A stretch of 64,000 nucleotides of DNA from an uncultured Bacilli bacterium (GTDB taxonomy: Bacteria; Bacillota_I; Bacilli_A; RF39; UBA660): assembly GCA_934130175.1 (NCBI GenBank), contig CAKOXP010000003.1, positions 27,494 through 91,493 of the forward strand, given 5' to 3'. Shown here in pieces: positions 10,465 to 60,961 of the stretch (within the stretch, counting starts at the first letter, position 1; each line of letters opens with the position of its first letter). The translations under genes were made by a program, and so were the position numbers. Below the pieces are notes generated by a model, which saw only the letters and a program-made list of their open reading frames with translations, ran no database searches and was not told the DNA's origin.

Positions 10465-10705
10465 TTTTAAGATATAAATATGTTATATTATAAGTGTAAT
10501 TTTTTGATGACTGATGATAAGTAATTATATTAAATACTTGCAGAGACTTAGTGGTTGGTGAAAACTAAGATATTTATTATATATGAAATACACATCATGA
10601 AAAAAATCGTTTATCGCGTTAAGATATTAAGGTGTATTTTGATACATAAAATAAGGTGGTACCACGAATAATTCGTCCTTTGGGTGATTTATTCGTTTTT
10701 TTATT
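10465..10705 (+). promoter_or_regulatory. T-box riboswitch leader (tyrosine-type) controlling tyrS
   Basis: Conserved T-box sequence AAGGTGGTACCACG at 10653-10666. It overlaps the 5-prime arm of the terminator ACGAATAA-(17 nt)-TTATTCGT-T7 at 10664-10703. About 250 nt of leader lies upstream of tyrS; the candidate Tyr specifier UAC sits in an upstream loop (around 10590). Confidence 0.7.
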
Positions 10706-10721
10706 AAAGGAGGATTTTAAA

Positions 10722-11954
10722 ATGACAAATTGGGAAGAATTAGAATGGAGAGGTTTGATTAAGGATACAGCAGGAGAAGACTTAAAAGATAAAATTAATA
10801 ATGAATCTATTACTTTTTATTGGGGAACAGATCCTACTGCTGACAGTCTTCACTTAGGACACTATAGTTCTTTAGTCACAGCTAAAAGATTAGCTAAAAT
10901 GGGACATCATCCTATACTTTTAGTAGGAGGAGCAACAGGACTTATTGGTGATCCTAGACCTACAGCAGAACGTGAAATTATTTCAAAAGAAGCTGTTGAA
11001 AAAAATTTAGATGGGATTAGAACTCAAGTAAATAACCTATTTAACGGAAATGTCGAAGTTGTTAACAATTATGATTGGATTAGTAAATTTGACTTTATAG
11101 ATTTCTTACGAGATGTTGGTAAATATATTAATATTAATTATATGTTAGATAAAGATATTATTAGAAGAAGATTAGACACAGGAATAACTTTTGCAGAGTT
11201 TTCTTATACTTTAATTCAAGGATATGATTTCTTGCATTTATTTAAAGAAAAAAATTGTATTATGCAAGCAGCAGGTTCTGATCAATGGGGAAATATCACA
11301 ACAGGAATTGATTTAATTAGAAAAATGACAGGAAAAGAAGCTTATGCTTTTACAATGCCATTAATCCTTGATTCTACTGGTAAAAAATTTGGTAAGAGTG
11401 AAGGAAATGCTTTATGGTTAAATGAAGAAAAAACATCATCTTATGAATTATATCAATATTTAATTAATACAGATGATGCTAAAGTATATGAATATTTAAA
11501 AGTCTTTACCTTCCTAACACCCGAAGAAATTGATAGTATTATGGAAGAACATAAAAAACAACCAGAAAAAAGACTTGCTCAAAAGAAATTAGCTGAGTGT
11601 ATAATAACTGATTTACATGGAGAGAATTCTTTCAAAGAAGCAATTGAGATAAGTGAAGCTTTATTTAGCGGAGATATCAAAAAATTAAATGCCAATGAAA
11701 TAGAATTAGCATTTAAAGGATTAGATGCTAAAGAGTTAACAGAAGAAAAAACAATAGTTGATTTATTAGTAGATGAAGAAATTTGTAAGAGTAAACGTGA
11801 AGCAAGAGAGTTTATTGATAATAAATCTATCACTTTGAATGGTGATAAAGTAGAATCTTATAATTTTCTAGTTACAAAAAGTGTAGCTATAGAACAAAAA
11901 TATATAGTTATTAGAAGAGGAAAGAAAAAATATTATATTTTAAAATTTATATAG
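10722..11954 (+). CDS. tyrS: Tyrosyl-tRNA synthetase
   Basis: HIGH-type motif (SLHLGHY), KFGKS (KMSKS-like) and a C-terminal S4 domain. Start at ATG 10722 with RBS AAAGGAGG; the track start 10656 lies inside the T-box terminator. Confidence 0.9.
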   Translation: MTNWEELEWRGLIKDTAGEDLKDKINNESITFYWGTDPTADSLHLGHYSSLVTAKRLAKMGHHPILLVGGATGLIGDPRPTAEREIISKEAVEKNLDGIRTQVNNLFNGNVEVVNNYDWISKFDFIDFLRDVGKYININYMLDKDIIRRRLDTGITFAEFSYTLIQGYDFLHLFKEKNCIMQAAGSDQWGNITTGIDLIRKMTGKEAYAFTMPLILDSTGKKFGKSEGNALWLNEEKTSSYELYQYLINTDDAKVYEYLKVFTFLTPEEIDSIMEEHKKQPEKRLAQKKLAECIITDLHGENSFKEAIEISEALFSGDIKKLNANEIELAFKGLDAKELTEEKTIVDLLVDEEICKSKREAREFIDNKSITLNGDKVESYNFLVTKSVAIEQKYIVIRRGKKKYYILKFI

Positions 11955-23696: not shown

Positions 23697-23716
23697 AAGA
23701 GTCGTTAAACTCTTTA
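23697..23716. terminator. Bidirectional terminator between the mecA-like gene (+) and spoIVA (-)
   Basis: AAGAGT-cgttaa-ACTCTT hairpin flanked by A8 and T runs. Confidence 0.5.
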
Positions 23717-25189
23717 AATTACAATGGCTATCATATTATTAGAACCCTTATTAACTACTTTAGTAAGCGTTTGTTGTAATTTATATCTAATGTTATCTGG
23801 CATTAGATTTATTTTTGATTGAATTCCTTCTTGAACAATATTATCTAAACTTCTACCAAATATTTCACTTTTCCAAATACTTGTTGGGTCATTTTCTTGA
23901 TCTTTCATTAAATAATCAATTAATTCCTTACTTTGAACTTCACTACCAATAATAGGTTCAAAAGTAGATTCTACATCAACTCTAATCATATGGATAGATG
24001 GAGCAATAGCTTTAAGTTTTACTCCATATCTAGGTCCTTGTTTAACAATTTCAGGTTTATCAAGCTTCATGTCATTTAATGTTGGAGTAGCAACACCATA
24101 ACCTGTTTGTTTAACCATTTTTAGAGCATATTTTATTTGGTCATATTCACGTTTTGCGACATTAAAGTCTTGGAATAGTGCTAGTAAGTCTGCTTTATTT
24201 TTAACGTCAACATCAATAATTTCAGTTAAAGTTTTATTATATAAAACAGCAGGTGCACATAAGTCGATTGTAACAATACCAGTTGAAGGATCTACATTTG
24301 ATAGATAACTTTTTTCAATCATTTCATTATTTAAGAAATGTTTAGTAATATTATCAATATCACGTAGTTTATCCACCTCAACTACACTTTCTTTAATAGC
24401 CTTAATATATTCTTTCTTAACTGGATGATCTGGATTTAATATGGCAATCCATTCAGGCATATTAACTTTAACTTCTAAGATTGGAAATTCATATAAAGCT
24501 TCTTTTAAGATATCATACATATCTTTTTCAGTCATAGCTTCAATACTAATAGGCATAACAGGTACATTATGTTCTTCTTTTAATGAATTAGCAAGTCGTT
24601 CTGTTTCAGGTAGAGTTGGATGAGTAGAATTTAAAAGTACAATAAATGGTTTACCAATACTTTTTAATTCACTTATAACTCTGTTTTCAGCCTCTAAATA
24701 ATCATTACGATCAAATTCTCCAATCGAACCATCAGTAGTTACAACTATACCAATAGTTGAATGATCTTTAATTACTTTTTCAGTACCAACTTCAGCTGCT
24801 TCTACAAAAGGTATTTCTTCTGTATACCATGGAGTTTTTACCATACGTGGACCATTTTCATCACTTGCTCCAACAGCCTTATCAATAACATATCCAACAC
24901 AATCAACTAATCTTATATTACAACTAAAATCATCAATATTAATTTTAGCAGCATTATTAGGAACAAATTTTGGTTCTGTAGTCATAATAGTTTTTCCAGC
25001 AGCACTTTGTGGAATTTCATCAAGAGCTCTTTTTCTTTCATATTCATCTTCGATATTAGGAACAATTAATGTCTCTACCATTTTTTTGATAAAAGTAGAT
25101 TTTCCAGTTCTTACTGCTCCAACTACACCAAGATAAATATCTCCGCCACTTCTTTCAGCTATATTTTTAATTAATTCTTTTTTATCCAT
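23714..25189 (-). CDS. spoIVA: Stage IV sporulation protein A (spore coat morphogenetic ATPase)
   Basis: DIAERSGGDIYLGVVGAVRTGKSTFIKK...IPQSAAGKTIMTTEPKFVPN is near-identical to B. subtilis SpoIVA. Start at ATG 25189 with the RBS AAAGGAGA 7 nt upstream. Confidence 0.9.
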   Translation of the reverse strand: MDKKELIKNIAERSGGDIYLGVVGAVRTGKSTFIKKMVETLIVPNIEDEYERKRALDEIPQSAAGKTIMTTEPKFVPNNAAKINIDDFSCNIRLVDCVGYVIDKAVGASDENGPRMVKTPWYTEEIPFVEAAEVGTEKVIKDHSTIGIVVTTDGSIGEFDRNDYLEAENRVISELKSIGKPFIVLLNSTHPTLPETERLANSLKEEHNVPVMPISIEAMTEKDMYDILKEALYEFPILEVKVNMPEWIAILNPDHPVKKEYIKAIKESVVEVDKLRDIDNITKHFLNNEMIEKSYLSNVDPSTGIVTIDLCAPAVLYNKTLTEIIDVDVKNKADLLALFQDFNVAKREYDQIKYALKMVKQTGYGVATPTLNDMKLDKPEIVKQGPRYGVKLKAIAPSIHMIRVDVESTFEPIIGSEVQSKELIDYLMKDQENDPTSIWKSEIFGRSLDNIVQEGIQSKINLMPDNIRYKLQQTLTKVVNKGSNNMIAIVI

Positions 25190-25295
25190 TAACATTCTCC
25201 TTTATTCATTTTAAACTTATGTAAAGTAATGTTAATATATGCTTAAAATGTAGAAAATTAATGTTATACTAAAAATGAGAAAGAAAGGTTATAGT

Positions 25296-38213: not shown

Positions 38214-38543
38214 ATGTATCAGAACAAGATAGAACTTTCTCCACAAGATATCCTTGAAAAAGAGTTTAAAATAGATACTCGTGGATATCGTTTAAAAGAA
38301 GTTGATCAATATCTAGATATCATTATTAATGATTATGAAAAATTCTATACCATTATTAATGATTTAGAAAAAGAAAAAGCTGATTTACTTGGAGAAATAA
38401 TGAATCTTAAACAAGAGATTAGAAATATGAAAATGAATGCAGAAATTGCCAGAACAAATAGTGATATGCCCGAAGTAACTAATGTAGATCTATTACGTAG
38501 ACTATCTAAATTAGAGAAAATGGTATATGGTAAAGATGAATAA
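38214..38543 (+). CDS. gpsB: Cell-cycle protein GpsB (DivIVA-domain)
   Basis: LSPQDILEKEFKIDTRGYRLKEVDQYLDIIINDYE matches the GpsB/DivIVA N-terminal domain; about 110 aa; sits directly upstream of rnpB as in B. subtilis. Confidence 0.8.
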   Translation: MYQNKIELSPQDILEKEFKIDTRGYRLKEVDQYLDIIINDYEKFYTIINDLEKEKADLLGEIMNLKQEIRNMKMNAEIARTNSDMPEVTNVDLLRRLSKLEKMVYGKDE

Positions 38544-38890
38544 TACTTTGACAAACGCTATATTTTTGATATAGAGGAAAGTCCATGCTCACACGTTCTG
38601 AAATGAACGTAGTGTTCGTGTTCAGGAAAAAAATAACCTGAAGTAGAGAAAACTCTAACGGCGAAGTAAAGACCTAAGTCTTTAAGATATGGTCTTCTTC
38701 TGAAAAGTGCCGCAGTGACGATGTTTTAGGAAACTAAAAAGTGAAACGTGGTAAACCCCGCGAGTGAGAAACCCAAATTATGGTAGGGGAGCTTTGATTA
38801 GGGAATAACAACCGAGTCAGGGACTGAGCAATCAGTAGATAAATGTTTGTCGCCTAGTAATAGGTACAGAACATGGCTTATAAAGTATTA
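38543..38890 (+). ncRNA. rnpB: RNase P RNA, type B (Bacillus type)
   Basis: P4 strands GAGGAAAGTCCATGCTC (about 38573) and ACAGAACATGGCTTA (about 38866). P1 pairing AATACTTT/AAAGTATT at the ends, followed by T9. Internal GGTAAACCCC and GAAACCCAAAT conserved modules are present. Confidence 0.85.
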
Positions 38891-52905: not shown

Positions 52906-55053
52906 ATGTTTGATAAAATAGTATATATTAGTGATAGGTCTGCTAATATCAAATTAAAAGAAGGAACAGATGTAAAGATAAATTTAATGAACTTACACTT
53001 GATTTTTGAAGACAAAGATAAAAAAATACTAGGTGAAGTTGATGATGTTGATAAAGATCTTGTAAAAGCAAGATTCTTAGGAGAAATAGTAAATGGTAAT
53101 CTATTAGGTGGTGTTATCAGAAAACCATCACTAGATTCTACTATCAGAGTTATAACTAAAGAAGAAATTCCATTAATTGTTGGTTCAGAACGCCCTGGTT
53201 ATATGCCTTTAGGTGTAAGTCCTTTCTATAATGATTTTCCAGTTTACATGAATGTTAATAGTTTCTTTAGTAATCACTTTGCTATCTTTGGTAACAGTGG
53301 TTCAGGTAAAAGTTGTGGTGTCTCAAGAATTATTCAAAATATGTTTCATGATAAAAATTTATTTCCATATAAGGCAAATATATTTATGTTTGATTCCTCT
53401 GCAGAATACTATAGTGCATTTCGTAATTTAAATGCCATTAATCCTAACTTTAATTATAGATTTTATTCAACTAATGAAAAAGAAGGAATCGGAGAAAAAT
53501 TAAGAATCCCTATTTGGTTACTTAATGTTGATGATTTATCTCTTTTATTACAAATTACTAATCATTCTCAAATTCCAATCATTGAAAGAATGTTGAAACT
53601 AGCTTTAATATTTTCTGAGGATGGAGAACGTGCTGAAGCATATAAAAACCATTTAATCGCTAAGGCAATTATGTCAATTTTATATACAAATGAAACATCT
53701 CCTAATAAAAGAAATGAAATATTTACAATTTTAGGTAGTTGTTCTACAAAGCAATTTAATTTAGAAGCTCCAGTACAAGGCATTGGTTACACTAGAAAGT
53801 TTAGAGAGTGTTTCTTAATCGATTCTCAAGGGAATTTCTCCGAAAGTGTTTTATTAAATGAATATGTTTCTAGTTTTATAAAAGAAGAATTTGATTCATA
53901 TGAACCAAAGGGTGGAACTTATTATGACCTAGATACATTAGAAAAAGCCCTAAACTTTACTTTGATTAGTGAAGGATGGTTAAGAAATAAAAATACTTAT
54001 GGTGATGCTGTTACAATTAGAGTTAGACTTCACTCATTAATAGTAGGTGAGTATGCTAAATATTTTGATTACAAAGATTATGTTACTCAAGAGCAATATC
54101 TTTCATCTTTATTGATAGATGGTGGTAAAAAATATCAATTTGTTAATATTAACTTTGATGATGTTGATGACTGGTTTGCTAAAGTTATTACAAAGGTTTA
54201 TACAAGAATTATTTTTGATTTCTGTAAAAATCTAAAAGATAGAGCGACAATTCCATTTAATATTATTGTAGAAGAAGCTCATAGATATATTCAAAATGAT
54301 ACAGATAGATTCTTACTTGGATATAATATATTTGAACGTGTTGCTAAAGAAGGTCGTAAATATGGTGTCTTACTTGGTTTGATTTCTCAAAGACCAGTAG
54401 AATTATCAGATACAGTTATTTCTCAATGTTCAAGTTTCTTAATATTTAAAATGAACCATCCAACAGATGTTGAATATATTAGAAAAATGGTTCCAAACAT
54501 TAGTGATGAAATTGTTGAAAAACAAAAAACACTTCAGGCTGGTACTTGTTTAGGCTTCGGTATGGCTTTTAAAATTCCTTTAATAGTTAAATTGAAAATG
54601 CCAGATCCAGAACCAAGAAGTGGTAACTGTGACGTGTGTAGAATTTGGAACGGAAATAAGAATATAGTAGTAAATCAACAACAAGAGCCAGCTGTAAGTC
54701 CGACTATTCAAAATAAGGTTGAAGAACCAGAACTTATTTCTAGTTCTGTATCAGAAAAAAACGATAGTGGAATAACACTTACAAATCAAGTATTAGAAAA
54801 ACAAAATAACGTGATTAATTCTAATAATTGGAGGGCAGCAGTTACTTCTTCAGAAGTAGTATCAACTGTTCCGGTTGAAAAAGTAAAAGAAACAAACCAA
54901 CAAGTAATTGAAGAACCTCTTATTACTCCTATAAACGATGAAGAAGAACCTTCACTAATTACTGTTCCAATAAAAAATGAAAATACTCCATCTAACTCAT
55001 TAGATATCAATGATATTATTAATGCACCAGATGAAGATAATAATATAGAATAA
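52906..55053 (+). CDS. HerA/DUF87-family P-loop ATPase (FtsK-HerA superfamily) with ~150 aa low-complexity C-terminal tail
   Basis: Walker A FAIFGNSGSGKSCG. Walker B plus helicase-type motif IIVEEAHRYI. C-terminal DUF87/HerA signature LGLISQRPVELSDTVISQCSSFLIFKMNHPTDVEYI. N-terminal beta-barrel-like about 110 aa. C-terminal S/T/N/E/P-rich tail. Own extended -10 promoter (TGTATAAT at about 52850) and a weak terminator at about 55056-55075. Confidence 0.65.
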   Translation: MFDKIVYISDRSANIKLKEGTDVKINLMNLHLIFEDKDKKILGEVDDVDKDLVKARFLGEIVNGNLLGGVIRKPSLDSTIRVITKEEIPLIVGSERPGYMPLGVSPFYNDFPVYMNVNSFFSNHFAIFGNSGSGKSCGVSRIIQNMFHDKNLFPYKANIFMFDSSAEYYSAFRNLNAINPNFNYRFYSTNEKEGIGEKLRIPIWLLNVDDLSLLLQITNHSQIPIIERMLKLALIFSEDGERAEAYKNHLIAKAIMSILYTNETSPNKRNEIFTILGSCSTKQFNLEAPVQGIGYTRKFRECFLIDSQGNFSESVLLNEYVSSFIKEEFDSYEPKGGTYYDLDTLEKALNFTLISEGWLRNKNTYGDAVTIRVRLHSLIVGEYAKYFDYKDYVTQEQYLSSLLIDGGKKYQFVNINFDDVDDWFAKVITKVYTRIIFDFCKNLKDRATIPFNIIVEEAHRYIQNDTDRFLLGYNIFERVAKEGRKYGVLLGLISQRPVELSDTVISQCSSFLIFKMNHPTDVEYIRKMVPNISDEIVEKQKTLQAGTCLGFGMAFKIPLIVKLKMPDPEPRSGNCDVCRIWNGNKNIVVNQQQEPAVSPTIQNKVEEPELISSSVSEKNDSGITLTNQVLEKQNNVINSNNWRAAVTSSEVVSTVPVEKVKETNQQVIEEPLITPINDEEEPSLITVPIKNENTPSNSLDINDIINAPDEDNNIE

Positions 55054-56432: not shown

Positions 56433-56506
56433 GAATAGACCTATAAGGTCTTTTTCTATTCCTATTTTATTGTAAATTATGTTAAAATAAATTTAGGTGA
56501 TGTAAT

Positions 56507-57838
56507 GTGAATATAGAGGAAAAAGCATTAAAGTTTGCTATTAAAGCTCACTATGGTCAGGTAAGAAAAAGTGAAAAGGATAAACCAATGATAGTTCATC
56601 CTATAAATGTAGGATATATTTTAAAAGAATATGATTTTGATGAAAATGTTGTTGCAGCAGGATATTTACATGATGTAGTAGAAGATACAAAATATGAAGA
56701 AAGTGATATTCTAAAGGAGTTTGGATCTGATATAGCTTCACTTGTTATGACAGCTAGTGAGCCTATAAAAAGTCTTCCTTGGGAAGAAAGAAAACAACAT
56801 ACAATTGACACAGTTAAAAATCTTGACTTAAGACATAAAGCAGTTGTTTGTGCAGACAAGATTAGTAACCTAGAAGATTTAATAATTCTTTCAGAAAAAC
56901 AAGGCAATTATGATTTTTCAGCATTTAATAGAGGTTATGATAGTCAAAAGTGGTATTATACAGAAATCTATAATTCACTAATACTTAATGACAGCCATCC
57001 TATGTTTGATAGATTAAAAAAACTATTAGATCATATTTTTTCAGGTAGTAAAGATAGCTATGTAGAAGAAGTTATCTATGATAATGATGATGAATATAGT
57101 AAAGTTTTAAAGCTTCATTATAAAAAGTTAGAATTAAACAAACTAAAAAATGTATTTGAAATTAATCCATACGTAATCGAATTTACTGGTACACCACGTA
57201 CAGGAAAAACTACCTTAATAAACAATTTAAAAGATTTCTTTAAAAAGGGTGGTTTTGATACAAGTATTTTAGAGGAGTTTACAACATCAGAAAGATATAA
57301 GAAAACTATTTTTCCAAAATTAAAAAATGAATACAAAAATGTTGTAAATATGGAAATTCCTAAATATGTTTTACAAGATTTAGAAGAAGAGTTACAAAAA
57401 AATAAAGACATAATTATTGTAGACAGATGTCTATTTGATAGATTAATTTGGGTAGATAGATTGTATCTAAAAGATGGTATGACTAAAAAAGAATATGATG
57501 ATTATAAAGAGTTTTATATTCCAAAAATCAAAGAAAAAATAAATATAATTATTTCAACTTATACTGATAGCCTTACTTCTATAAGAAGAGATTATAAAGC
57601 CAATTTATCTCTCGAAAAGAGGAGTTTCTTGAATGAGACCAATGTAGATGAATATAATAAATCATTATTTAATATGGAAAAAGTAGCTAAAGAAGAATCA
57701 ATTAATTTTCATATATTTGATACAACAAAAAAATCTGAAAGAGATATTTCTATTGAAGTTGCAAATAAAATTTTAGATGATATGAGAAAATTTTACTTAG
57801 TAGAAATAAATAAAAGAATTGGGCAAATAGTTAAGTAA
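56507..57838 (+). CDS. Fusion protein: RelA/SpoT-type HD hydrolase domain (small alarmone hydrolase-like) + P-loop nucleoside/nucleotide-kinase-like domain
   Basis: N-terminal ~180 aa ALKFAIKAHYGQVRKSEKDKPMIVHPINVGYIL...AAGYLHDVVEDT...EFGSDIASLV matches the (p)ppGpp-hydrolase HD domain, including the HD dyad. The C-terminal ~250 aa carries Walker A FTGTPRTGKTTL and an IIIVDRCLFDRLIWVDR segment resembling the dNK/NadR-type kinase DRS-like motif. GTG start at 56507 with AGGTGA 6 nt upstream. Confidence 0.6.
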   Translation: MNIEEKALKFAIKAHYGQVRKSEKDKPMIVHPINVGYILKEYDFDENVVAAGYLHDVVEDTKYEESDILKEFGSDIASLVMTASEPIKSLPWEERKQHTIDTVKNLDLRHKAVVCADKISNLEDLIILSEKQGNYDFSAFNRGYDSQKWYYTEIYNSLILNDSHPMFDRLKKLLDHIFSGSKDSYVEEVIYDNDDEYSKVLKLHYKKLELNKLKNVFEINPYVIEFTGTPRTGKTTLINNLKDFFKKGGFDTSILEEFTTSERYKKTIFPKLKNEYKNVVNMEIPKYVLQDLEEELQKNKDIIIVDRCLFDRLIWVDRLYLKDGMTKKEYDDYKEFYIPKIKEKINIIISTYTDSLTSIRRDYKANLSLEKRSFLNETNVDEYNKSLFNMEKVAKEESINFHIFDTTKKSERDISIEVANKILDDMRKFYLVEINKRIGQIVK

Positions 57839-57892
57839 TATTAACTATTTTTCTTTTTAGTGGTATAATCTTTATGGATAGAAGGTAATAAA

Positions 57893-60619: not shown

Positions 60620-60961
60620 ATGTTTAGAAGAGCAAATGAATTTGAAATAAATTCAGCAGTTTCTGGTAATAATAATGTTGTTGAAAATGAGATGAATGTT
60701 GATATTGACATGATTCAAAATAATCAAGCAACTGGTAATGACATGATGGCACCAAGCTATTATAACAGTCCAATTAAAGAAGCTGTAAAAGAGCGTTGTG
60801 TACACAGAACTATCGTTCATGAAGTACCACATATTTGTCCAATTAGAACAAGAATAATTAATCATCACGTATACAAACATACTTATCGTCCAGAATATTC
60901 TTGCTGCGAAGAAAATACAGTAAGTAATGTTCAATGCGGTTCTTGTAGTCAATTCAGATAG
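60620..60961 (+). CDS. Spore coat protein CotD-like (His/Pro/Cys-rich)
   Basis: The C-terminal half CVHRTIVHEVPHICPIRTRIINHHVYKHTYRPEYSCCEE has the H-x-x-P-H / HH repeat pattern of CotD-family inner coat proteins. RBS AGGAGG. Confidence 0.55.
   Translation: MFRRANEFEINSAVSGNNNVVENEMNVDIDMIQNNQATGNDMMAPSYYNSPIKEAVKERCVHRTIVHEVPHICPIRTRIINHHVYKHTYRPEYSCCEENTVSNVQCGSCSQFR

Follow-up and report, generated by a model that had tools for sequence, protein, structure and literature searches.

What might a protein do that joins, in one chain, a hydrolase domain of the kind that removes alarmones and a P-loop domain resembling nucleoside kinases? The question is posed by a gene lying behind ffh in a 64,000-nucleotide stretch of DNA from an uncultured Bacilli bacterium (assembly GCA_934130175.1, contig CAKOXP010000003.1, positions 27,494 to 91,493), the whole of which is referred to here as the window. 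The encoded protein, hereafter the fusion, consists of an N-terminal HD domain of the small alarmone hydrolase (SAH) type, a helical linker and a C-terminal domain related to deoxynucleoside kinases (dNKs) and thymidylate kinases (TMPKs). What is new is the architectural pairing of two known kinds of enzyme, with a complete SAH active site and a predicted complete kinase-type active site, in a large protein family. The reading that we favour, for which the chances appear to us evenly balanced, is that the fusion is bifunctional, with one half hydrolysing alarmones and the other phosphorylating a nucleoside or nucleotide.

By fold and motifs, the N-terminal domain is a RelH/MixSpo-type SAH. The Pfam family HD_4 matches residues 7-125 (E=5e-16; 59.2 bits, cutoff 27.2), and over this HD stretch TIGR00691, a model of the RelA/SpoT subfamily, scores 83 bits against a cutoff of 499. 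Among sequences in the PDB, the best match is Lmo0812 of Listeria (4yf1; E=5e-37), which aligns over residues 4-178 with 42-43% identity and belongs to the MixSpo (RelH) subfamily of SAHs (PMC10434055). The next matches are Drosophila Mesh1, the RelH proteins of C. glutamicum and L. levettii, several N-terminal domains of Rel, human Mesh1, and the (p)ppApp hydrolase Aph1. Comparison with Foldseek of the AlphaFold2 (AF2) model with Lmo0812 gave target-normalised template-modelling (TM) scores of 0.84-0.90; for the RelH/MixSpo SAHs together (Lmo0812, 4yf1; C. glutamicum RelH, 7qod; L. levettii RelH, 7qoe), the range is 0.79-0.90.

The active site of such enzymes is described by six motifs, namely the HD1 Arg, HD2 His, HD3 His-Asp, HD4 Glu-Asp, HD5 Asp-Lys/Arg, and HD6 Asn (Bisiak et al., PMC9293644). 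All six are common to the fusion and the known SAHs. In an alignment of 40 sequences reaching down to 37% identity, the HD1-HD6 residues are invariant with the exception of D60, which is conserved in at least 90%. A preliminary description of the locus had proposed an HD hydrolase of the RelA/SpoT homologue (RSH) type from the motifs AHYGQVR (residues 14-20), VHP (30-32), LHDVVEDT (54-61), and FGSDIASLV (72-80). Each of these is present, and the profile and structural matches, together with the conservation of the catalytic residues, bear the proposal out. One position departs from the known enzymes. In Rel and RelH, a Ser or Thr located three residues past the HD6 Asn helps to hold the base-stacking HD1 Arg (PMC9293644), whereas the fusion carries Asp124 (56876-56878), which is conserved in at least 90% of the fusion family. 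This replacement may reflect a difference in specificity.

The C-terminal domain is, as judged from its sequence and predicted fold, a distinct branch of dNK/TMPK-like kinases with a full complement of catalytic motifs. It matches Pfam AAA_28 over residues 224-322 (E=4e-8; 34.1 bits against a cutoff of 27), with weaker matches to AAA_18, AAA_22, and KTI12, and it also matches a PHROG family named thymidylate kinase (E=1.6e-8). An AF2 model of the C-terminal part alone was obtained with a predicted local distance difference test (pLDDT) score of 93 and a predicted TM (pTM) score of 0.90. The top 50 Foldseek matches of this model in the PDB are dominated by deoxynucleoside kinases (deoxyadenosine, deoxycytidine, and multisubstrate) and thymidylate kinases and also include the cytidine kinase AbmG and a PPK2, with E-values of 1e-8 to 4e-6 and target-normalised TM scores of 0.54-0.75. 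The first of these is the Giardia deoxyadenosine kinase (dAK) 8puu (E=1e-8), and the M. mycoides dAK 2jas is also included.

For a comparison of individual residues, an alignment (A4) of 31 sequences was used, consisting of the C-terminal domain from the window and 30 relatives lacking the HD domain, some of which are fragments at contig ends. The A4 profile aligns to the M. mycoides dAK (2jas) from the P-loop to the lid (E=1e-7), and its P-loop, GTPRxGKT, pairs with GTVGAGKST of that enzyme. Within A4, G228, G233, K234, E257, D311, W315, and R361 are invariant, and D306, R307, and T235 are conserved in at least 90%. The long helix at residues 194-214 (KLHYKKLEL) is likewise found in the stand-alone relatives of the kinase-like domain and thus belongs to the C-terminal module.

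The dNKs, including M. mycoides dAK (2jas/2jaq), G. intestinalis dAK (8puu), human deoxycytidine kinase, and Drosophila dNK, are the best structural matches (E=1e-8 to 1e-6) and share with the fusion the P-loop, the Glu after strand 2, the DR(S/T) motif, an aromatic residue, and the lid Arg. They differ from it in that identity is only 14-25%, the query-normalised TM is about 0.5-0.6, and the fusion possesses an extra N-terminal helix and an Arg in its P-loop. An Arg at this position, as R231 in GTPRTGKT, is typical of class I thymidylate kinases. The highest target-normalised TM scores (0.70-0.75) were obtained for TMPKs (Aquifex 2pbr/5xb5, S. tokodaii 4rzx, yeast 3tmk, and S. aureus 4eaq), the profile matches of which (E=7.5e-7) cover only the segment from the P-loop to the DR motif. 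Two relatives are labelled "thymidylate kinase" by JGI, and a few relatives of the kinase-like domain give weak dNK or Thymidylate_kin matches.

The preliminary description had viewed this part as a nucleoside or nucleotide kinase-like domain, quoting the Walker A sequence GTPRTGKTT, which is found at residues 228-236. The Foldseek match to dAK and the motif-by-motif alignment to 2jas agree with that view and not with a generic AAA ATPase. Its further comparison with NadR-type kinases found no counterpart in the PDB match lists shown, by sequence or by fold, which contain no NadR entry; deoxynucleoside and thymidylate kinases come closest in structure. Of the kinase-like Pfam families, AAA_28 alone has its gathering threshold passed by the fusion, and it is the one that connects the fusion with the ribosylnicotinamide kinase type of NadR. 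Since AAA_28 is a broad family and no NadR appears in those lists, the term lacks specific support. An SRP54-type (SIMIBI) GTPase was considered as well and rejected. Profile matches to FtsY/SRP54 (best E=5e-11) are limited to the segment between the P-loop and Walker B (profile positions 23-126), VDR stands in place of DTAGR, and no signal recognition particle (SRP) GTPase occurs among the top 50 Foldseek matches. In view of the limited coverage and the lack of an SRP GTPase among the fold matches, we regard this likeness as generic P-loop similarity.

The positions of both domains, their motifs, and the elements flanking the gene are collected in Table 1.

Table 1. Features of the fusion gene and its upstream flank in the window.
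Feature	Position	Strand	Residues, remarks and basis
Terminator-like hairpin (AGACCT-ATA-AGGTCT, 56437-56451) followed by T-run	56437..56461	+	Just after the ffh stop codon
Ribosome-binding site AGGTGA	56495..56500	+	6 nt upstream of GTG
Fusion gene	56507..57838	+	443 codons and stop, GTG start; SAH-type HD hydrolase and dNK/TMPK-like P-loop domain
SAH (RelH/MixSpo-type) HD domain	56507..57046	+	Residues 1-180; Pfam HD_4, Lmo0812 match, Foldseek
HD1 R20	56564-56566	+	Motif definition of PMC9293644
HD2 H31	56597-56599	+	Motif definition of PMC9293644
HD3 H55-D56	56669-56674	+	Motif definition of PMC9293644
HD4 E59-D60	56681-56686	+	Motif definition of PMC9293644
HD5 D117-K118	56855-56860	+	Motif definition of PMC9293644
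HD6 N121	56867-56869	+	Motif definition of PMC9293644
Helical linker	57047..57166	+	Residues 181-220; secondary structure of models
dNK/TMPK-like P-loop phosphotransferase domain (predicted)	57167..57835	+	Residues 221-443; AAA_28, PHROG, Foldseek, profile alignment
Walker A G228-T235 (GTPRTGKT)	57188-57211	+	Motif; Arg231 in the loop
E257	57275-57277	+	After strand 2; aligned to the "EP" Glu of M. mycoides dAK
D306-R307 (DR motif)	57422-57427	+	Aligned to DRT of M. mycoides dAK
D311	57437-57439	+	Invariant in A4
W315	57449-57451	+	Aligned to a Phe of M. mycoides dAK
Lid R361	57587-57589	+	Aligned to the lid Arg of M. mycoides dAK

The matches to both domains (HD_4, AAA_28, Lmo0812, and dAK) lie far beyond chance, and the two domains are found together in a large family. 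A search of 5.8 billion proteins yielded at least 1,524 matches among the candidates scored, and nearly all of the best 120 of these (65-99% identity) carry the HD_4 and AAA_28 pair; the same pair is on record as a precomputed annotation for nearly all listed homologues. A second search, started from a 44%-identical member, returned at least 2,316 matches with the same architecture, together with a variant of about 650 amino acids with an additional N-terminal generic HD domain. In total, the family comprises at least 1,500 clusters at 90% identity, derives almost entirely from metagenome genomes named "Bacilli bacterium", and is abundant in human-gut metagenomes. A scan of metagenome contigs for full-length loci gave mostly HD-only matches and a single fusion (L023). 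Among 231 listed homologues, 37 are long forms of at least 600 amino acids, and 228 retain both HDxxE[DE] and the Walker A and DR motifs.

Both domains are under purifying selection. Relative to an 81%-identical orthologue (L007), the ratio of nonsynonymous to synonymous substitution rates (dN/dS) is 0.10 over the whole gene, 0.13 within the HD part, and 0.08 within the kinase-like part; relative to another homologue (L001), the values are 0.23 and 0.14 for the HD and kinase-like domains, respectively. The AF2 model of the full-length protein (pLDDT 92, pTM 0.90) suggests that the two domains adopt a defined mutual arrangement with an interface. The PDB contains no chain that spans the two domains; at best, the query-normalised TM is 0.37. 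The names on record for the family, "HD domain-containing protein [Bacilli bacterium]" and "thymidylate kinase", are generic, and no description of an HD hydrolase-kinase fusion was found in the literature, including the RSH classification papers. As far as these sources allow, the statement in the preliminary description that no characterised enzyme carries this fusion stands. As a separate observation, one form of the approximately 650-amino-acid variant (P0358; L022:6001-7959) carries a generic HD domain ahead of HD_4 and has no AAA_28 match on record; its gene lies beside Mob_Pre relaxase and serine-recombinase genes and is therefore probably located on a mobile element.

The fusion departs from both classes of enzyme with which its HD domain can be compared. 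SAHs are defined in Atkinson 2011 (PMC3153485) as single-domain proteins containing HD only, and the known examples are about 180-200 amino acids long, whereas the fusion adds a C-terminal P-loop domain of about 250 amino acids. With the long RSH enzymes (Rel/SpoT), it shares an N-terminal HD domain followed by a second nucleotide-binding domain that uses (in the fusion, presumably) ATP, and its HD domain matches those of RelSeq, B. subtilis Rel, and T. thermophilus Rel with E=1e-8 to 1e-13. However, no matches to the RelA_SpoT synthetase (PF04607), TGS, or ACT domains were obtained for the fusion, and TIGR00691 covers only the HD part. The second domain of long RSH enzymes is a pyrophosphokinase of nucleotidyltransferase fold; that of the fusion has a P-loop kinase fold.

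The kinase-like domain also occurs in other combinations. In an exhaustive HMMER search of 1.84 billion cluster representatives, residues 190-443 as query identified 475 relatives at E<=1e-3. Of the best 150, HD_4 is present in 22 and a generic HD domain in 16, five reach a match to Pfam NUDIX, and 42 have a C-terminal extension of about 220 amino acids with a Nudix-box-like motif (GGHxRxxD...RELxEELG). These Nudix-like fusion proteins (P0173, P0183, P0188, P0195, P0199, and about 37 more) are 440-480 amino acids long and begin with the kinase-like domain. A look for names or annotations of these proteins found none, and a match to a PHROG MutT/NUDIX family supports the Nudix-like nature of the extension in P0183. 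Other relatives stand alone at about 225-260 amino acids, and some apparent stand-alone proteins are contig-end fragments of fusions, for example P0122 and P0130 on contigs of 1.1-1.4 kb. Thus, the kinase-like domain has been partnered repeatedly with nucleotide (pyro)phosphohydrolases.

Within the window, the gene is preceded by a spacer of 74 nt after ffh. The preliminary description had placed its beginning at 56433, which is the first base after the ffh stop codon; the gene is real, and its start lies at 56507. The GTG start and the good ribosome-binding site that it had noted are both confirmed, given that the N-termini of 39 homologues share the start column of the fusion and that the L007 orthologue has ATG at the same codon. 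Three terminator-like sites were found in the region against 0.2 expected from shuffled sequence. With the hairpin just after ffh, the fusion gene appears to be transcribed separately from ffh. Two antisense open reading frames (ORFs) within the fusion gene lack support and are ordinary for DNA of 27% GC content. Searches near the gene found no riboswitch or other Rfam element. A tblastn search of the window with a tandem small alarmone synthetase (SAS) query from L010 gave no match. Apart from the fusion, no P-loop protein resembling gmk, tmk, or dNK was found in the window, to which this result is confined.

The gene order in the window is RNase Y, RNase J (minus strand), ftsY, ylxM, a DUF87/HerA-like ATPase, ffh, the fusion, and a P-type cation ATPase, followed by a 113-amino-acid ORF, rpoZ, and recX; L007 has the same order. 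At the fusion locus, the window is 97% identical to the human-gut metagenome-assembled genome Bacilli bacterium HGM10839, and the fusion behaves as a chromosomal housekeeping gene of a low-GC (26.7%) human-gut Firmicute. Several of the neighbours merit brief mention. The genes ylxM and ffh are usually adjacent; here, and likewise in L007, they are separated by a gene (52906-55053, +) for a 715-amino-acid DUF87/HerA-like P-loop ATPase, the C-terminal tail of which is long and of low complexity. Immediately behind the stop codon of the fusion, upstream of the gene for the P-type ATPase, a promoter-like site (57841-57869, +) consists of TTAACT, a 17-nt spacer, and TATAAT with an upstream TG, which suggests that the ATPase gene is transcribed on its own. 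The 113-amino-acid ORF between the P-type ATPase and rpoZ (60620-60961, +) is rich in Cys, His, and Asn and has no Pfam match; a 107-amino-acid ORF occupies its position in L007.

Elsewhere in the window, a class B bacterial RNase P RNA (38543-38885, +; 287.6 bits) fits a low-GC Firmicute, and a T-box leader (10498-10683, +) scoring 94.1 bits, just above the gathering score, lies upstream of the ORF at 10656-11954. A 493-amino-acid ORF on the minus strand (23714-25195) has an N-terminal region, including DIYLGVVGAVRTGKSTFIKK, that resembles the sporulation protein SpoIVA. Together with GerA spore-germination genes beside a fusion homologue in L020, this likeness suggests endospore formation in these "Bacilli bacterium" lineages.

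Outside the closest relatives, the surroundings of the fusion gene change. The preliminary description held that the gene occupies the slot in which rpsP normally follows ffh. Unrelated neighbourhoods are found in eight other lineages, and the position behind ffh recurs only in the close relatives examined (81% identity). A search of the window with an approximate B. subtilis RpsP query did not find rpsP. Because the neighbourhood is not conserved, the slot carries no functional meaning. An operon logic joining ffh and the fusion was rejected on similar grounds, as nine independent neighbourhoods have no common partner and a terminator-like hairpin follows ffh. In L010-L012, a methyltransferase gene lies upstream of the fusion orthologue, and a tandem SAS and a P-type ATPase lie downstream. 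Other neighbours of fusion genes include UvrD/LigA, LysM, uracil-DNA glycosylase (UDG) with NrdD/NrdG, an ABC transporter, and the GerA genes of L020.

Two observations link the fusion weakly to alarmone metabolism. In L010 (9472-10728) and likewise in L011 and L012, a 418-amino-acid protein made up of two RelA_SpoT synthetase domains in tandem is encoded directly downstream of a 65%-identical fusion orthologue, followed by a 163-amino-acid ORF and the P-type ATPase; across all loci, this tandem SAS was found only in L010-L012. On L136 (5974-7904), a high-GC predicted viral contig, a 190-amino-acid SAH, a 246-amino-acid ORF, and a 245-amino-acid stand-alone kinase-like gene occur in a row, the SAH and kinase-like genes lying about 0.6 kb apart. 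No SAH neighbour was found in the other four stand-alone loci (L183-L186, three different proteins), so the unfused pairing argues only weakly for a link. In L186, which lacks an SAH, the 246-amino-acid ORF is likewise conserved ahead of the kinase-like gene.

On the favoured reading of a bifunctional enzyme, the N-terminal domain would remove the 3'-pyrophosphate from (pp)pGpp in a Mn2+-dependent manner, yielding GTP, GDP, or GMP, and probably would act on (p)ppApp too. We infer these activities by analogy with RelH of C. glutamicum and L. levettii and from the complete, conserved active site; the closest homologue, Lmo0812, is to our knowledge represented only by a crystal structure. The C-terminal domain would catalyse ATP-dependent phosphotransfer, most likely to a nucleoside or nucleoside monophosphate, as its intact P-loop, candidate catalytic Glu, DR motif, and lid Arg would permit. 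The fusion would then tie alarmone removal to the re-phosphorylation or salvage of nucleotides, such that both activities would help the cell to leave the stringent state and refill its nucleoside triphosphate pool. Two-step processing of an alarmone or signalling nucleotide and a Mesh1-like activity on NADPH, both put forward in the preliminary description, are hypothetical as well. The repeated fusion of kinase-like domains to HD_4, generic HD, and Nudix-like hydrolases is in keeping with this reading, pointing to a general link with nucleotide hydrolysis.

Several observations weigh against it. No member of the fusion family has been characterised. The thresholds of dNK (PF01712) and Thymidylate_kin (PF02223) are not reached, and TIGR00041 gives 12 bits against a cutoff of 83 (E=0.11); since only the threshold of the broad AAA_28 family is passed, the substrate class of the kinase cannot be assigned. 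The substrate of the HD domain is not certain either, because Mesh1-type enzymes also dephosphorylate NADPH, coenzyme A (CoA), and 3'-phosphoadenosine 5'-phosphosulfate (PAPS). The neighbourhood is variable, with a synthetase neighbour in one of about nine contexts and the unfused SAH/kinase pairing in one of five stand-alone contexts. Finally, one or the other domain has decayed in divergent representatives. Seven of these (P0161, P0180, P0185, P0196, P0202, P0242, and P0246) keep HD1-HD6 intact and have lost the kinase motifs (P-loop, DR, and lid), and P0125 has lost HD4 with its kinase motifs intact. Decay was read from a site-by-site alignment and not from the architectures given by a hidden Markov model of the HD domain, which produced spurious "hd" matches in Lys/Glu-rich C-terminal helices. 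The fusion therefore does not always need both activities, a situation that would suit a regulatory role.

Such a role is the core of the main alternative, possible if rather doubtful, in which the kinase-like domain is a nucleotide-sensing module that binds ATP, GTP, or deoxynucleoside triphosphates (dNTPs) and switches the hydrolase allosterically. This would be analogous to the binding of feedback inhibitors by dNKs and to the control exerted by the synthetase and pseudo-hydrolase domains in long Rel/RelA. The kinase-like domain directly follows HD, as SYNTH does in long RSH enzymes, the confident two-domain model hints at an interface through which switching could occur, and the decay seen in the divergent members just described fits such a role. 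In addition, SAHs are seen as free-standing enzymes that appear constitutively active in vitro, and their regulation is an open question (PMC9293644). Set against these points, every kinase catalytic motif is kept in the window protein and in nearly all listed homologues, the candidate base E257 is retained even though a pure binding domain would not need it, and purifying selection on the kinase-like domain is at least as strong as on HD. The same motif set and domain order also allow a more radical reading, which we consider distinctly unlikely, in which a previously undescribed 3'-phosphorylated signalling nucleotide, of the ppGp or pGp type, is made by the P-loop domain and erased by the HD domain. 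In this non-homologous "writer/eraser" analogue of Rel, the P-loop domain would replace the Rel synthetase functionally, transferring phosphate from ATP to a hydroxyl of the ribose in a guanine or adenine nucleotide. The HD-SYNTH-like order, the full set of kinase motifs with no assignable substrate, and the decay of either domain, as in RelA/SpoT, would fit this analogy.

The remaining accounts shift the substrate or the context. It is unlikely, in our estimate, that the HD domain acts mainly on NADPH, CoA, and PAPS, as Mesh1 does, with the fused kinase and phosphatase forming a pair that works on the same cofactors. Drosophila Mesh1 (E=1e-15) and human Mesh1 (E=7e-10 to 8e-11) are among the sequence matches, Mesh1 complexes with NADPH and PAPS are among the structural ones, and MESH1 is presented as a CoA 3'-phosphatase in a 2026 report (PMC13221220). 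The bacterial RelH/MixSpo SAHs are nevertheless far closer (E=5e-37 versus 1e-15), their characterised members hydrolyse (pp)pGpp (PMC9293644, PMC10434055), and no variation is seen in the two residues that position the guanine base, the HD1 Arg and the HD6 Asn. On the kinase side, the P-loop kinases of this broad fold class also include APS kinase and dephospho-CoA kinase, and weak APS kinase profile matches were obtained; these are limited to the P-loop, whereas the full-length alignment is to dNKs and not to APS kinase or CoaE. Least probable of all, and in our view highly unlikely, is a phage or mobile-element factor acting in defence or counter-defence. According to PMC7229694, phages and prophages commonly encode SAHs, which neutralise toxSAS toxins, that is, toxic alarmone synthetases, and the fusion could act likewise. 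The approximately 650-amino-acid variant with an extra HD domain adjoins Mob_Pre and recombinase genes in L022, L136 is a predicted viral contig with separate SAH and kinase-like genes, and PHROG families match both domains. In contrast, the window gene sits amid the housekeeping genes ftsY, ylxM, ffh, rpoZ, and recX, as does its 81%-identical orthologue, a PADLOC search gave no match, and among the best 80 viral-contig loci there is no close relative of full length, these being HD-only matches and the distant L136.

The fusion thus offers new perspectives on how alarmone turnover may be organised. If both halves work, it would physically and directly couple the breakdown of alarmones to the (re)phosphorylation or salvage of nucleotides in uncultured gut Firmicutes. 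If the kinase half is a sensor instead, the protein would be a nucleotide-gated SAH. Either outcome would also be relevant to the related families that combine this kinase-like domain with Nudix-like or generic HD hydrolases.

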